Virus record (IMG/VR): IMGVR_UViG_2693429557_000018
Source: a virus
Lineage: Duplodnaviria; Heunggongvirae; Uroviricota; Caudoviricetes
DNA: 8,225 nucleotides
Direction: 5' to 3' (one strand)
Part shown: piece after piece, positions 2,693 to 8,225 of the stretch
Layout of the letters: every line of letters starts with the position of its first letter
How positions within the stretch are numbered: position 1 is the stretch's first letter
The notes under the pieces: generated by a model
Told to the model about the DNA's origin: nothing
Database searches by the model: none
What the model saw: the letters and a program-made list of their open reading frames with translations, nothing else
Position numbers and translations under genes: made by a program

Positions 2693-3247
2693 ATGAACCC
2701 TAAAATCACTTGGAGATTAATTCCAAATTCAAAACATTACTACGTATCTGAAAATGGCGATGTTTACAATGATAAAACAAAACAGTATATAGCTACGAAA
2801 AACCCATCTAATGGATACAAAAAAGTTTCTATTAATGGCAAATCACTATATGTACATGTTTTGGTTTGTACTTTATTCAATGGTGCTAAACCCATTGGAG
2901 GAAGATACACTGTAGATCATATCGACCGCGATAAAATGAATAACAAAGCAAAAAATTTACGTTGGGTAACTCAGAAGGTTAATAATTCCAATAGAAAGCA
3001 TAAAGGTACTCGTACTCAAAAGCTTACTCTAAAGCAATGGTTAATGATTGTTGGAGAGTACCTTAAAGGACAATTATCTCAATATGCAATCACTAAATGG
3101 TTTTTAAATCAAACTGGTATTAATATTTGCCCTCAGAATATAGGTAAGTTATTCAAAGGTACTACCTATTCAAAATGGTACACAACATATCTTACGAATA
3201 AGCAAAGACAAAGAATACAAAGCCTAACCATTCAACGTAAACCATAA
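2693..3247 (+). CDS. HNH homing endonuclease (NUMOD4-like N-terminus plus HNH_3-type nuclease motif), free-standing
   Basis: N-terminal WRLIPNSKHYYVSENGDVYN (NUMOD4-like), central GYKKVSINGK...YVHVLVC...TVDHIDRDKMNNKAKNLRWVTQKVN (HNH of phage homing endonucleases), basic C-terminal tail; RBS AAGGA 8 nt upstream of ATG 2693. Confidence 0.8.
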   Translation: MNPKITWRLIPNSKHYYVSENGDVYNDKTKQYIATKNPSNGYKKVSINGKSLYVHVLVCTLFNGAKPIGGRYTVDHIDRDKMNNKAKNLRWVTQKVNNSNRKHKGTRTQKLTLKQWLMIVGEYLKGQLSQYAITKWFLNQTGINICPQNIGKLFKGTTYSKWYTTYLTNKQRQRIQSLTIQRKP

Positions 3248-3830: not shown

Positions 3831-3840
3831 TTGTAACTTA

Positions 3841-3923
3841 TTACGGCATATTACGGCATGGATGTATGCCGTAATACGGCAAAAAAAGCCCCTGAAACCC
3901 GCTATTTACCATCAATACGGCAA
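3841..3923. repeat. Cluster of TACGGCA-core repeats (iteron-like): two direct TTACGGCAT copies, one inverted copy forming a 9-bp hairpin, and two AATACGGCAA copies
   Basis: TTACGGCAT at 3841-3849 and 3851-3859; inverted ATGCCGTAA at 3866-3874 (loop GGATGT); AATACGGCAA at 3873-3882 and 3914-3923; A7 run at 3881-3887. Read directly from the sequence. Confidence 0.6.
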
Positions 3924-4293: not shown

Positions 4294-5037
4294 ATGAACA
4301 GAAAACAATTCATCCAGTCGCATGGTGCTACTTGTAGTAACTGGACTTGGAGTTGGTCATTTGTGAACCACGACAAGAAAATGGTTATCTTTGGTGCATG
4401 GGATGTACAAAAAGAGCAAGAAAGATCAGTCATTCTGAGGGAGCGGTGGAAAACCAAAGTTGTGGAGGGAAAGGAAAGAAAAAATCTTGGATATATTCAA
4501 GCTATTGAACACATTCAATTGATAGCTGAAGGTTATGAGCTTTACACGTTTGATATGGAGCAGGGACGAAACGATGAGAATAGAGATGTAGCTGTTATCA
4601 AACGGTTCACTCCAAAACTTGAAAAACGTTACCTTCGGAAAGAAGGAACAGTTTGGTATGCAGACTTTTTACCTAATCCATTTCCAGATGAAATTACCTC
4701 ACCTGAAAACTACGCTGAGGGTGCAAAAAAGCAAGTTACAGTAAACTCCTACGAGCGTGATCCAAAAGCACGACAGGCTTGTATTGACCATCATGGTACT
4801 TCCTGCGGGTGTTGTGAGTTTAACTTTGAGAAAGTCTATGGTGAACACGCCAAGGGCTTTATACACGTTCATCATATCAAACCGCTACACACAGTAGGCG
4901 AGGATTACGAGGTAAATCCAATTACTGATATGGTTCCACTTTGTCCAAACTGTCACGCAATGGTACATCGCGGTAACGAAGTATTAAGTGTCGAAAGTTT
5001 AAAAGCACTGTTGTTTAAAGACAGCAATAAAATTTGA
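4294..5037 (+). CDS. HNH-family nuclease with an uncharacterised ~160-aa N-terminal domain (candidate restriction/defence nuclease)
   Basis: C-terminal HNH signature CIDHHGTSCGCCEF ... HVHHIKPL ... NPITDMVPLCPNCHAMVH (Cys-rich zinc site, His-His, Asn, terminal His); strong RBS AGAGAGGG 5 nt upstream of ATG 4294. The N-terminal region (QSHGATCSNWTWSWSFVNHDKKMVIFGAWD...) is not recognisable to me. Confidence 0.8.
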   Translation: MNRKQFIQSHGATCSNWTWSWSFVNHDKKMVIFGAWDVQKEQERSVILRERWKTKVVEGKERKNLGYIQAIEHIQLIAEGYELYTFDMEQGRNDENRDVAVIKRFTPKLEKRYLRKEGTVWYADFLPNPFPDEITSPENYAEGAKKQVTVNSYERDPKARQACIDHHGTSCGCCEFNFEKVYGEHAKGFIHVHHIKPLHTVGEDYEVNPITDMVPLCPNCHAMVHRGNEVLSVESLKALLFKDSNKI

Positions 5038-5050
5038 ATTTATTTTAGAC

Positions 5051-5079
5051 TTGATACGACATACTTGAAAAGTTATGAA
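5051..5079 (+). promoter_or_regulatory. Candidate sigma70-type promoter for the 5120..5593 gene
   Basis: TTGATA (5051-5056), 17-nt spacer, TATGAA (5074-5079), about 40 nt upstream of ATG 5120. Pattern match only. Confidence 0.25.
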
Positions 5080-5119
5080 TACAATATGCTTTAAATTAGA
5101 CATGTAAGTTGAGAGAAAA

Positions 5120-5593
5120 ATGAGCATAACAACAATAGCAGCTACATATAAAGATGTGTTAACTATTGCTTTTTCGGCGTTGTCATTTATTATTGCATGT
5201 ACTTCCTTATACTTCTCCGGTAGGGCAGCATGGCATGATAGATCAAGGCTAAAAATAACAGCTGACCTCGTCTACGAGTCTTTTGATGAGGAACCTTATA
5301 AAATCGAGGTGATAGTGATCAATGTTGGTAGGCGTGATGCAGTTTTGGAAGGGATGCTTTGCCATTATGAAAAAGGCATTAGGAGCCATTCATCTCCAAA
5401 AGAGAGCATTGTTATTAAAGAAAAGCAAAGAAAAAAATTTGAATTGGTAAGCTCAGACTTAGTCACGATAGATAATGAATGTGATATTTGTCATTTAGAA
5501 GATATAACTATTTTAGATGTGGAGGGGAATGAACATAAAATCCCTAACTCTCACAGACTCATTGCATTACTTAAGCAAGATAAAAAGACTTAA
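5120..5593 (+). CDS. Membrane-anchored hypothetical protein (157 aa; one N-terminal transmembrane helix)
   Basis: Intact ORF 82 nt downstream of the HNH nuclease gene; N-terminal hydrophobic segment (LTIAFSALSFIIACTSLYF), then a soluble domain with a CDICH motif; GAGAG upstream of the ATG. Confidence 0.55.
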   Translation: MSITTIAATYKDVLTIAFSALSFIIACTSLYFSGRAAWHDRSRLKITADLVYESFDEEPYKIEVIVINVGRRDAVLEGMLCHYEKGIRSHSSPKESIVIKEKQRKKFELVSSDLVTIDNECDICHLEDITILDVEGNEHKIPNSHRLIALLKQDKKT

Positions 5594-5632
5594 GAATAAT
5601 ATTTTTTGGAATGTAAGGTAAATGTTAGATGC

Positions 5633-5673
5633 CACTATAGATTGAGGGTTAGAACTACTAACCCACTATAGGG
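5633..5673 (+). promoter_or_regulatory. Two copies of a T7-class phage promoter core (CACTATAG / CACTATAGGG) flanking a 7-bp inverted repeat
   Basis: CACTATAG at 5633-5640 and CACTATAGGG at 5664-5673 (identical to T7 promoter positions -7 to +3); between them GGGTTAG (5646-5652) / CTAACCC (5658-5664) form an inverted repeat with loop AACTA. The -17 to -8 region does not match T7 itself. Confidence 0.2.
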
Positions 5674-5849
5674 TTTACGAGATGATAAGAATGGAATTTA
5701 ACACCTACGATGGTGATATATATTACTTCCTCTATTTATATAGGAGGTACGAAAGGGGGAGTACTTTAATGAAGACCTTATAAATCTTAATGTTGAGATG
5801 TTAGTTATAGCGGTGAGGATACCCCACCGTCTATTGGGAGTTGTGGACT

Positions 5850-6518
5850 CTAATTAGAGAAAACGAATAAGTTATTCATGTCCTTTTTCAAGGTTGCATG
5901 TGCTTCTATTAAACTATCAAATGTATCTACTAATAACTTTCCATAGCTGACATTGTAATGATATCTATCATGAATGTCATTTATATCAAAACTTATCGCT
6001 TCCCTCAATGTTCCTAAAGCAATTTGATTACTGAAGAAATAATTATTGAATATAGCTTCATCTTTTGGCGATACTTTCCAAAAGGTAAGTGATTGCAATT
6101 CGCTTTTTAATGAGGCTAACTTAATGTTTAATAGATCGATAACTTCTCGTTCAGTTTTAACTAAATGTGCGAAATTTTTTGGTTCTATATCTGGTTCAGT
6201 ATTGTTAAGGTTGCATATATTTTCATATGTTTTCAACATCTCCAACGAAAAAAGATCGCAATTAGTCCAGAACTTAGTAACTTGATTTAAAGCATTTTCC
6301 TTTATTTTAGTTTGAAACCAATTTTTAGCGTTCCATGCTGCATATAGGGCTGCTCCAGCCATAATGAGATTGGCAATAGAACTAACCCAGTCACTAACCG
6401 ATCCCCACTCGAAACCTTCAGAACCAACAAAGAGTGATTTTATTAGTACTAAAATTACAACAACCAGTAATACTGCTACGGTCGATAAAAGAACGATATT
6501 TAATTTTCTACAATCCAT
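5850..6518 (-). CDS. Hypothetical membrane protein (222 aa; two N-terminal transmembrane segments, helical C-terminal domain)
   Basis: Intact minus-strand ORF, AT-rich; N-terminus LLSTVAVLLVVVILVLI plus a second hydrophobic segment VSSIANLIMAGAALYAAW. Convergent with the 5120..5593 gene. No recognisable catalytic motif. Confidence 0.55.
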   Translation of the reverse strand: MDCRKLNIVLLSTVAVLLVVVILVLIKSLFVGSEGFEWGSVSDWVSSIANLIMAGAALYAAWNAKNWFQTKIKENALNQVTKFWTNCDLFSLEMLKTYENICNLNNTEPDIEPKNFAHLVKTEREVIDLLNIKLASLKSELQSLTFWKVSPKDEAIFNNYFFSNQIALGTLREAISFDINDIHDRYHYNVSYGKLLVDTFDSLIEAHATLKKDMNNLFVFSN

Positions 6519-6592
6519 CGAAAGTAGTTCCTGAACGCATTAAAGGGGCAAATACTTTACCATCCGAAACACAATCAAGTACACTACCCGTT

Positions 6593-6645
6593 CACGTACT
6601 GCTCACATGTTGGGTTTGTTATTTTGTTGGGGTGAGCAGTACGTG
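6593..6645. repeat. Perfect 14-bp inverted repeat with a 25-nt loop containing a direct GTTGGG repeat
   Basis: CACGTACTGCTCAC (6593-6606) and GTGAGCAGTACGTG (6632-6645) are exact reverse complements; loop ATGTTGGGTTTGTTATTTTGTTGGG. Lies 6 nt beyond the stop of the 6651..6962 gene, at the AT-rich to GC-balanced transition. No adjacent U-tract on either strand. Confidence 0.7.
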
Positions 6646-6650
6646 TATCC

Positions 6651-6962
6651 TCAGAAGGGTAGTTCCCCCTGATCACAGAACCAATCACCTTCTTCACTGC
6701 TTTGATTCATCCGGTACTCAGCAGATAGATATGCTAACCCATCAATAACACTTATTAGTGGTGTTTCACAGGTAAGTACAAAACAATCTCTCTCTATAGT
6801 ACCTAACCAGTATTCCCTGTACTGATTCTGGAAGAATACCCTATCCCCATAATGAAATTCTGTTAGTGCAGATCCCCAATAACACACGGTTGCCCAGCGA
6901 CCGTTATGTGAGAACTTCTGAACCCCTCGCGTAATGGATGGATCATAGCCGTCTTTGCTCAT
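6651..6962 (-). CDS. Hypothetical protein (103 aa), probably SOS (LexA) regulated
   Basis: Minus-strand ORF with strong RBS (GAGGAGGG, about 6 nt spacing) and a near-consensus LexA box 22 nt upstream of the ATG; visibly higher GC than the upstream cargo. No recognisable motif in the product. Confidence 0.6.
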   Translation of the reverse strand: MSKDGYDPSITRGVQKFSHNGRWATVCYWGSALTEFHYGDRVFFQNQYREYWLGTIERDCFVLTCETPLISVIDGLAYLSAEYRMNQSSEEGDWFCDQGELPF

Positions 6963-6983
6963 TTGTTACCCTCCTCTATGTAT

Positions 6984-7003
6984 TACTGTATATATGTACA
7001 GTA
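6984..7003. promoter_or_regulatory. LexA (SOS) box, gammaproteobacterial type
   Basis: TACTGTATATATGTACAGTA = CTGT-N8-ACAG, 19 of 20 matches to the E. coli consensus TACTGTATATATATACAGTA; sits in the promoter region of the 6651..6962 minus-strand gene and in the divergent intergenic region. Confidence 0.7.
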
Positions 7004-7072
7004 TTGCAGTCAGTTTCCCAAAAATCCAGCACCCCTTTGTTTACCACTTTGAATGATTAATTCTATTGTAAT

Positions 7073-7089
7073 GATCAATAAAATTGATC
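7073..7089. promoter_or_regulatory. GATC-containing palindromic operator-like site (GATCAAT-aaa-ATTGATC), with a third related half-site downstream
   Basis: Perfect 7-bp inverted repeat with 3-bp spacer at 7073-7089; AATGATCAAT is repeated at 7070-7079 and 7113-7122; three GATC sites within about 47 bp, upstream of the 7155..7706 gene. Confidence 0.3.
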
Positions 7090-7154
7090 TATTTAATTGC
7101 CAATGTTTTAAAAATGATCAATTATCAATAACTTAAAGCGTAACGAGCAAAGTT

Positions 7155-7706
7155 ATGAACATTGATAATTGGGCAATACCGATAACAAGTTTGGGTGGTC
7201 AGTTGCTGGGGGTTGAGTTGGTCAGCCATGTAGAACGCGAGGGAATCAGGCAGATCGGCCTATGGGAAGAAGAAGTACTTCATGGGCAACTAATGCTTAT
7301 TGAAAGCAAGGCGGCATGGTTCAGGGATAACGGTTTGTATTGTGTGATTACTACTGGCCGTGGTGAACCATACGAGTACTTACCATTCCTTCGGCAGATG
7401 ACAAGGGATATGAAAGTACATAACCAGCAGTGGCTTGATGATCTCGGTGTACATGGTGGTTCTGCTATTCCTCTGGTTACAGGTGATTTCGAGGTTGCCC
7501 GATTAAATAGAAGGTACACAGAAGAGAACATTGACCGTCTGATCTTTCCAGTACTCATAAAAAGCATTCGCCAGTACTGCGAGAAGGTGATCGTACCCGT
7601 CAGAGATAAAACGTATTACCCAATTCTCAGAGAGGCCGGTGTATGGGCGGTACAGGGAGAGTTCAGGCCAATGCGTTTTGAGCAATGTGAAAAATTAATA
7701 GGATAA
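7155..7706 (+). CDS. Degenerate EAL-like domain protein (183 aa), probably catalytically inactive
   Basis: Motifs resembling the EAL fold in the right order: GVELVSH in place of the EAL motif, LDDLGVHGGS resembling DDFGTGYSS, GVWAVQGEFRPMRF resembling the QG-x-x-F-x-P C-terminal motif. The domain is shorter than a canonical EAL domain and key residues look substituted. Pattern match by eye only. Confidence 0.5.
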   Translation: MNIDNWAIPITSLGGQLLGVELVSHVEREGIRQIGLWEEEVLHGQLMLIESKAAWFRDNGLYCVITTGRGEPYEYLPFLRQMTRDMKVHNQQWLDDLGVHGGSAIPLVTGDFEVARLNRRYTEENIDRLIFPVLIKSIRQYCEKVIVPVRDKTYYPILREAGVWAVQGEFRPMRFEQCEKLIG

Positions 7707-8081: not shown

Positions 8082-8225
8082 ATGGGAAAGGTAATGGTGA
8101 TTTTGTTAGTACTGGCTGGGGTACTCTTCAACATTGCAGGTGAGGATGCACCCCAGCCACAGTACACGGACAATGAGTGGATTTGCCCCTATATTTCCAG
8201 ACATCTGTTATCACTTAACCCATTA
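8082..8225 (+). CDS. 3'-truncated ORF with a hydrophobic N-terminus (signal peptide or membrane anchor)
   Basis: ATG at 8082 (second in-frame ATG at 8094) starts 7 nt after the lipoprotein stop; translation MGKVMVILLVLAGVLFNIAGEDAPQPQYTDNEWICPYISRHLLSLNPL runs open to the window end. Confidence 0.4.
   Translation, partial: MGKVMVILLVLAGVLFNIAGEDAPQPQYTDNEWICPYISRHLLSLNPL

Follow-up and report, generated by a model that had tools for sequence, protein, structure and literature searches.

A single-copy stem-loop with a covarying stem, a conserved loop and a predicted promoter at a mosaic junction of a Shigella sonnei prophage

The window, meaning the whole stretch of 8,225 nucleotides analysed here (IMG/VR record IMGVR_UViG_2693429557_000018), is part of a Shigella sonnei prophage that is carried, among others, by strain 53G (HE616528). 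A 644-aa large serine recombinase, the C-terminal part of which occupies positions 15–1025, integrated it beside yeaG, and the prophage continues rightwards through small genes of no assigned function, terS, a lambda-GpA-type terL, and the portal and capsid genes. The genes on the right of the hairpin, described as host-like in the original prediction, are thus phage genes, and both flanks of the hairpin consist of phage DNA. The prophage is widespread in S. sonnei: over 700 indexed blocks of the searched assembly collection contain the genes beside the hairpin. Its best terminase match in 50,697 phage records was 35% identical, and the lineage appears to be without a close cultured relative. 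Most of the prophage genes have no family assignment, and Pfam and PHROGs gave no matches for the 222-aa, 183-aa and other neighbouring proteins. The cargo region has two HNH endonuclease genes (2693–3247 and 4294–5037), of which one is of the HNH_3/NUMOD4 homing type and the other has its HNH domain at the C-terminus. At 8178–8225, an IS2 end is inserted after a 120-aa lipoprotein gene, and the window stops there. Other IS insertions were found elsewhere in the same prophage in other S. sonnei strains, including an IS2-like element in terL, an IS21-like element near the 183-aa gene and an IS1 in the cargo.

The hairpin lies between two minus-strand genes of 103 and 222 codons (Table 1), with the start codon of the 222-aa gene 75 nt away. 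In addition to the LexA box upstream of the 103-aa gene in the window, a CTG-N10-CAG box was present upstream of 23 of the 23 homologues checked, indicating that this gene family (phrog_2100) is SOS-controlled. SOS-controlled phage genes often encode antirepressors, and the 103-aa gene is a candidate antirepressor or induction gene. Its AlphaFold model (pLDDT 85) had no Foldseek match in the PDB. The sole cultured-phage match to the protein was a weak one in Escherichia phage Cartapus (L078, 32320–32580), with 39% identity over 66% of the length; this match is located in the cargo region of a P2-like phage, beside a DinI gene.

Table 1. Coordinates and strands of the features at the hairpin locus (window positions unless another locus is named)
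Feature	Position	Strand	Remark
5' stem arm CACGTACTGCTCAC	6593..6606	+	on the strand with the G/U-rich loop
Loop ATGTTGGGTTTGTTATTTTGTTGGG with family core GGTTTGTT at 6613-6620	6607..6631	+	
3' stem arm GTGAGCAGTACGTG	6632..6645	+	
Outer helix, left half ACTACCC	6583..6589	.	overlaps the predicted -10 region
Outer helix, right half GGGTAGT	6657..6663	.	Leu-Pro codons near the end of the 103-aa gene (..ELPF)
Predicted -35 TTACCA	6557..6562	+	17-nt spacer; reads into the hairpin
Predicted -10 TACACT	6580..6585	+	ends 7 nt before the stem
Extended -10 TGGTAAAGT	6554..6562	-	same bases as the + strand -35
103-aa gene	6651..6962	-	stop codon 5 nt from the hairpin; predicted + strand transcript antisense
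222-aa gene, N-terminal membrane helix	5850..6518	-	variable cargo gene on the other side of the hairpin
LexA (SOS) box TACTGTATATATGTACAGTA	6984..7003	.	near-consensus; 22 nt upstream of the 103-aa start codon
att sites of the serine-integrase prophage	L077 1768-1830 and 26700-26770; L236 870-930		

The two 14-bp arms are perfectly complementary and enclose a 25-nt loop with copies of GTTGGG at 6609–6614 and 6626–6631, and the repeat is confirmed just as the original prediction gave it. The loop contains no C and is G/U-rich on the + strand. No longer local inverted repeat was found within 5000–7300. When size and composition are considered, a perfect 14-bp inverted repeat with a loop of 3–60 nt is expected 0.004 times per window, and 1 of 300 shuffled windows contained one; the repeat is not due to chance. 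Beyond the stem, the sequences ACTACCC and GGGTAGT pair in an outer 7-bp helix that lengthens the fold. The stem-loop is the dominant structure in the folds predicted for both RNA strands and for + strand DNA, with z-scores of -4.1 for single-stranded DNA, -2.8 for minus-strand RNA and -1.5 for a 109-nt + strand transcript.

A canonical intrinsic terminator, already dismissed in the original prediction, was rejected. The loop of 25 nt contrasts with the 3–8 nt of such terminators, whose G+C-rich stem is followed immediately by a U-tract; no T-run is present on either strand or on either side of the hairpin, the same holds in all relatives, and a terminator scan of 5700–7300 returned 0 sites. 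An integron attC site was also rejected. In attC, the inverse core RYYYAAC and the core GTTRRRY form the paired, inverted ends of a hairpin beside an integron integrase; here, the GTTGGG copies are direct repeats within the loop rather than paired ends, and a tyrosine integron integrase was not seen among the scanned ORFs.

Homologues of the 103-aa gene were retrieved by protein similarity alone, yielding 6 genomes and 49 viral contigs (~30–36 kb). A subset of these loci carried a hairpin at the same place, with a wholly different stem sequence and a conserved loop, and further copies were identified at non-homologous sites in the same phage lineage. Altogether, the hairpins comprise ~40 distinct variants with nearly always perfect stems of 10–23 bp and loops of 16–34 nt. 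Read on the + strand, the family loop follows the pattern (A/T)(A/T)T-GGG-(T-N)-GGTTTGTT-..GG and is essentially free of C; the core GGTTTGTT, preceded by GGG, is invariant in the family. A whole-hairpin MAFFT alignment left the stems out of register, and covariation was therefore counted on trimmed arms, where 10 of 10 pairs vary on both sides, and on a model-guided alignment, where 12 of 12 do so. Pairing cells amounted to 96–98%, compared with 51–63% in shuffles (95.7% against 63% for the 12-pair alignment), although both alignments were selected or fitted for pairing and are biased towards it. Unbiased evidence is provided by the orthologous positions retrieved by protein similarity alone, which have different yet fully paired stems. 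These covarying stems in related loci agree with a structured RNA element, one of several options named in the original prediction.

A covariance model built on five other loci, with the window excluded, recovered the hairpin of the window with 21.6 bits (E = 0.03 in 711 kb), on no strand but the +, and gave exactly one match per locus; the copy number is one in each of three near-complete genomes. In an exact loop-motif search of 2.9 million viral contigs, stem-flanked matches occurred only in the same phage lineage. Rfam gave no match at the hairpin up to E = 5 (window 5500–7500) and no gathering-score match in 10 related loci, and 5,426 complete E. coli genomes contained no match to the hairpin region. 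To judge from these searches, the hairpins form a previously undescribed single-copy family in one enterobacterial prophage group. The pattern of change suggests that the stem is selected for pairing and the loop for sequence, which implies that something recognises the loop.

Several candidate functions of the loop were considered and set aside. A peptide coded through the loop was suggested by a 32-codon hydrophobic ORF that enters the hairpin in L026; its frame and start codon are not conserved, an early stop is present in L069, and the window has another frame. A G-quadruplex is not compatible with the window loop, which has just two G-runs. Motifs for IHF, DnaA, sigma-54, RfaH (ops) and LexA were compared by eye, as consensus sequences, with the loop, and none fits family-wide. 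Loop-complementary sites in the phage, searched in three genomes and in loci of up to 30 kb, were limited to chance 9–12-mers.

The strand on which the element is likely to function was addressed through stem mismatches and promoter-like sites. Among the mismatches, 16 are G·U on the + (G/U-loop) strand and 5 on the other, or ~11 against 2 when counted as independent events. One G·U event comes from an inverted copy and so speaks against a simple mutation bias linked to the strand of replication or transcription. To count as promoter-like, a site had to match 8 or more of the 12 positions and to have A2 and T6 in its -10. Such a site, with its -10 ending 3–10 nt before the stem on the + strand, was found in 29 of 37 variants, compared with 5.6% of random positions and 1 of 37 on the hairpin's other side, although the sequence variants are phylogenetically related and these counts overstate their independence. 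After the variants had been collapsed to 16 mutually non-aligning flank types, with intergenic positions as the background, the site was present in 13 of the 16, against 8.1% (p = 3e-12). The -10 ends peak at 4–6 nt from the stem and are scattered at 11–49 nt. At least eight unrelated promoter sequences are involved, such as TTACCA-17-TAYACT, TTGCAA-16/18-TAAAAT or AATAAT, TTGTCT-17-TAGAAT, GTTATA-17-TATAAT and GGGACA-18-TG-n-TATGAT. These two independent lines, the G·U bias and the promoter coupling, point to the + strand as the probable functional strand.

The promoter-like site of the window matches the consensus at 8 of 12 positions, which is under the 9/12 threshold of a separate scan. 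From the position of its -10 relative to the stem, transcription is predicted to start at ~6591–6593, the base of the stem. On the minus strand, the extended -10 that shares its bases with the predicted -35 is possibly the promoter of the 222-aa gene; orthologous loci have kept the block AGTRTAC-N16-TGGTAAAGT.

Different contexts were observed for the hairpin and its promoter-like site, together referred to as the cassette. In the commonest arrangement, which is also that of the window, the cassette is directed at the 3' end of a gene convergent with it, and the stem often lies 0–12 nt past the stop codon of that gene. The cassettes of L069 and L235 adjoin the end of a longer SOS operon. A leader context was also found, in which the hairpin is 21–39 nt upstream of a start codon (L026, L070 and L149) or 246 nt upstream (L216), and in L025 the hairpin is immediately upstream of a gene for a 77-aa membrane protein. 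Among the terL-anchored loci, the hairpin lies 1.3–5.4 kb upstream of terL, and 13 of 15 covariance-model matches are on the terL strand, the L070 and L026 types being inverted. A canonical terminator is located 25 nt past the hairpin in L073, which would give an RNA of ~135 nt; this was the only locus with a + strand terminator downstream of the hairpin, and none was found in the window. As a separate observation, the hairpin promoter in one class of relatives, L069 (4847–5005), L070 (4310–4461, minus strand), L103 and L164, belongs to a conserved module of ~150 nt. A bidirectional intrinsic terminator, GCCAGTACCGCAAAGTACTGGC with A7 and T7 on its two sides, closes this module, and the ~100 nt of conserved non-coding DNA that separate it from the promoter gave no Rfam match.

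The frequent position behind a stop codon also suggests a function on the opposite strand, as a minus-strand RNA hairpin 3' of the 103-aa mRNA or between cistrons, where it could be a U-less terminator or insulator, a 3' stabiliser against exonucleases, or a processing site; a role of this kind has been shown for the stem-loops of T4-type PeSL cassettes. The window stem begins 5 nt after the 103-aa stop codon, and its outer helix involves the last codons of that gene. In ~28 of 40 variants, the upstream ORF has the C/A-loop strand as its sense strand, frequently with the short gap mentioned above, and many of the hairpins lie between convergent genes. Where homologous loci lack the hairpin, canonical intrinsic terminators take its place; in addition, the 5' arm and loop of the minus strand are C-rich and G-poor, resembling a Rho loading site, and the stem-loops of the PeSL cassettes of T4-type phages terminate efficiently in reporter assays (PMC2839356). 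Nevertheless, no family member has a U-tract, and the stem mismatches that are G·U on the + strand are C·A on the minus strand. Canonical terminators occur beside the hairpin in L069, L103, L164 and L073, so that ordinary terminators are not lacking in these phages. A minus-strand function would also leave the + strand promoter coupling and the conserved loop unaccounted for, and we consider it unlikely. The palindrome would be transcribed both ways if both promoters fire, and this function, a + strand RNA and the DNA-level role considered below are thus not mutually exclusive.

The original prediction had also proposed that the hairpin could be a recombinase recognition site or an element end and that it may mark the boundary of an island. 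The positions of the att sites were obtained from an empty site and a related prophage remnant in E. coli, which were compared with each other. The attB sequence, ...GCCGTCCTTTCGT|TTTTTAGCACAGG, is located just 5' of the yeaG start codon, between yeaG and mipA; the att core is GTCCTTTCGT, and in the reconstructed attP this core is surrounded by the inverted repeat AAATGTTCCCAT / ATGGGAACATTT. The attL site adjoins yeaG, past the left end of the window. None of the attB, attL, attR and attP sequences shows any likeness to the hairpin, and the reading as an element end or recombinase site was therefore rejected; the prophage ends beside yeaG, and the hairpin is internal to it. A broader form of this explanation, in which the hairpin is the site of a large serine recombinase, the end of a transposon or island, or a generic REP/MITE repeat, would fit the serine recombinase gene present in the window and the position of the hairpin at a GC shift. 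Against it stand the att sites, elsewhere and unrelated in sequence, the prophage DNA on both flanks, and the results of the copy search proposed in the original prediction: one copy per phage genome with variable arms, no match in the E. coli genomes, and exact-motif matches in the viral contigs restricted to the same lineage. We regard this explanation as extremely improbable. A mobile insertion with a GTAC target duplication was rejected as well, as the inner 'terminal repeats' are different in each copy and GTAC is absent from half of the hairpins.

What the hairpin marks is an internal mosaic junction, not an island edge. In the comparison with the closest viral contig, identity is 93% for the 103-aa protein and 33% for the 222-aa protein. 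The GC content is 0.32 in the 222-aa gene, 0.36 in the cargo further left and 0.44–0.46 in the right-hand genes (0.44 in the 103-aa gene). The compositional junction of the original prediction is thus present, although the shift is modest and its right side is phage rather than host DNA. In the E. coli AREA_C483 prophage remnant (L021, 6988–12186), the 222-aa and 103-aa homologues are separated by an insert of 5.4 kb, made up of a gene for an HNH endonuclease, a hypothetical gene and an IS3 element with a group II intron inside it; there, the hairpin stays with the 103-aa homologue, apart from the 222-aa homologue. Upstream and downstream flanks also reassort at the hairpin in other relatives.

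This location raises the alternative of a DNA-level element, either a hot spot or linker for the exchange of cargo modules or a protein-binding site in which the conserved 'loop' would be an operator bordered by a palindrome, possibly acting as a single-stranded DNA hairpin. It would accord with the exact coincidence of the hairpin and the junction in identity and GC content, with the reassorting flanks and the AREA_C483 insert, and with the single copy at a limited distance upstream of terL. The PeSL cassettes have been proposed as recombination linkers (PMC2839356). The arms often contain GTAC or AGTACT, which is ~8-fold over-represented across these genomes. Only ~15–20 nt of the loop are common to the copies, however, and the arms are not conserved, so that homology for exchange is not supplied by them. 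Covariation that preserves pairing implies a folded single strand, a preference for G·U over C·A is unexpected for duplex recognition, and a 25-nt spacer disfavours cruciform extrusion. A cognate recombinase or binding protein was not found, and the serine-integrase att sites differ. On balance, we consider a DNA-level role unlikely, to the same degree as a minus-strand function.

In our interpretation, to which we give about an even chance of being correct, the element is a cassette of a promoter and a 5'-terminal stem-loop RNA at a mosaic junction, which in the window would give a cis-antisense transcript. It brings together the hairpin itself, the covariation of its stem, the conservation of its loop core, the single copy per genome, the promoter-like coupling and the + strand G·U bias. 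A sigma-70-type promoter, TTACCA-17-TACACT, would start a + strand RNA at ~6592, the first base of the stem. This RNA would open with the 14-bp helix, presenting a C-free, G/U-rich loop of 25 nt, and the hairpin would make up approximately its first 50 bases. Promoter and stem-loop would together constitute a single-copy cassette typical of one enterobacterial prophage lineage of 30–36 kb, placed where the conserved LexA-controlled 103-aa gene meets variable cargo. In the window, its transcription would run convergently against the SOS-induced 103-aa gene, and since the cassette faces the 3' end of this gene, its product would be a cis-antisense RNA accompanied by convergent transcription. In a few relatives, the reversed cassette would be the 5' leader of a cargo gene. 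We infer that the promoter at 6557–6585 fires. The terminal helix may structure and protect the 5' end of the RNA, as do helices with 0–2 unpaired 5' nucleotides in E. coli, and the conserved loop may be a surface bound by some protein or RNA.

The closest published analogue is the PeSL (promoter-early stem-loop) cassette of T4-type phages, in which a strong sigma-70 promoter and a stem-loop are located between cargo ORFans and mediate modular shuffling (Arbiol et al. 2010, PMC2839356). PeSLs are present in dozens of copies per genome of lytic myoviruses, with ~100 bp of conserved sequence, and in one subclass the stem-loop is located just 3' of the -10 box (PMC2839356; PMC4122927). Similarly, a sigma-70-type promoter, here a predicted one found in most flank types, is coupled to a stable stem-loop in our family, and the cassette lies between non-essential cargo ORFs, in a variable part of the genome, at points of module exchange. 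Unlike PeSLs, the hairpin is single-copy and belongs to a temperate lineage, its stems are not conserved and just the loop core is common to the copies; moreover, the window hairpin faces the end of a gene instead of leading into one. The concept of promoter/stem-loop cassettes at cargo junctions, known from lytic T4-type phages, is thereby extended to a temperate lineage, in which structure and loop are conserved rather than the whole sequence.

IS10 RNA-OUT, P22 sar and P1/P7 c4 are promoter-adjacent stem-loop antisense RNAs, of which sar and c4 control antirepressor genes; they overlap the 5' end or ribosome-binding site of their targets and have defined 3' ends. The predicted RNA of the window resembles them in being short, promoter-driven and opposite to its target, an SOS-controlled gene, with a long initial stem-loop. 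It differs in that the overlap involves the 3' end of the target and that no 3' end can be named, the search for a + strand terminator in the window having been negative; furthermore, conservation of the loop extends to cassettes that face other genes. The ompA leader represents a 5'-terminal stabilising stem-loop, a type of stabiliser that needs no conserved loop. Our predicted start would likewise leave 0–2 unpaired nucleotides before a long helix, but the family loop is conserved. With Rho-independent terminators and REP elements, the hairpin shares an intergenic position near a stop codon; it is distinguished from them by the lack of a U-tract, the 25-nt loop, the single copy and the non-conserved arms.

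The lambda nut boxB and HK022 put elements are promoter-proximal antitermination hairpins, and a boxB-type loop has 5 nt. As in nut/put, the hairpin is just past a (predicted) promoter, its loop is conserved over a covarying stem, it is present in one or few copies per genome, and at 13 of the 15 terL-anchored loci it points towards the terminase/structural operon. In contrast to nut/put, the loop has 16–34 nt rather than 5, the L070 and L026 types are inverted exceptions, and in the window 500 nt of an antisense gene precede the next same-strand gene. A boxA was not noticed by eye, and an N-like protein was not found among the neighbouring proteins, which lack family assignments. The likeness of the element to these hairpins, as to the antisense RNAs above, is one of geometry.

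A more ambitious proposal, which we put forward as speculative and improbable, is a new phage riboregulator: a single-copy, promoter-coupled RNA whose G/U-rich loop would recruit a host or phage factor, leading to antitermination or to an RNA safety catch. In the first case, a termination-resistant polymerase would be directed towards the terminase/structural operon by a put/nut-like device of a new type. In the second, the RNA would be a safety catch on a LexA-controlled induction gene. If the proposal were true, a hitherto unknown RNA layer would participate in the lysis-lysogeny decision of a prophage lineage common in Shigella sonnei and Enterobacter-group bacteria. With respect to the original question, the hairpin is neither an island boundary nor a recombinase site. 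It is a structured element specific to this lineage, new in itself but of a general kind already known, with a well-supported architecture, a predicted expression and a putative function of its loop. As a conserved, covarying and promoter-coupled RNA structure against an SOS-controlled gene, it offers a testable handle on prophage regulation.

Other repeats were also observed in the window and its relatives. At 3839–3876, nested TATTACGGCAT repeats form hairpins of 11–12 bp after a 153-aa gene and are followed by GGCAAAAAAAG; they are probably a bidirectional terminator. A perfect 11-bp inverted repeat, CAATTATCAAT / ATTGATAATTG (7119–7129 and 7161–7171), encloses the ribosome-binding site of the 183-aa gene together with its start codon (7155) and is kept in the related contig L172 (7323–7375); possible functions are an operator pair and a hairpin sequestering the start codon. 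Perfect inverted repeats with arms of 23–26 bp and GTAC-rich loops of 40–45 nt were found in L172 (4893–4984), L171 (2144–2234) and L219 (2959–3022), ~5–7 kb upstream of terL, and are absent from the window.

A general excess of GTAC-type sites was also detected, for which a literature search found no report. The core of the motif is presumably that of the E. coli SlmA-binding site. The window has 81 GTAC sites, against an expectation of 28. Over 323 kb of DNA from related phages, AGTACT is over-represented 8.2-fold, at 3.1–3.7 per kb, and CAGTACTG 37-fold. In the window and in L172, L199, L201 and other loci, the sites are spread throughout, including coding DNA, and were also observed in hairpin and terminator stems.
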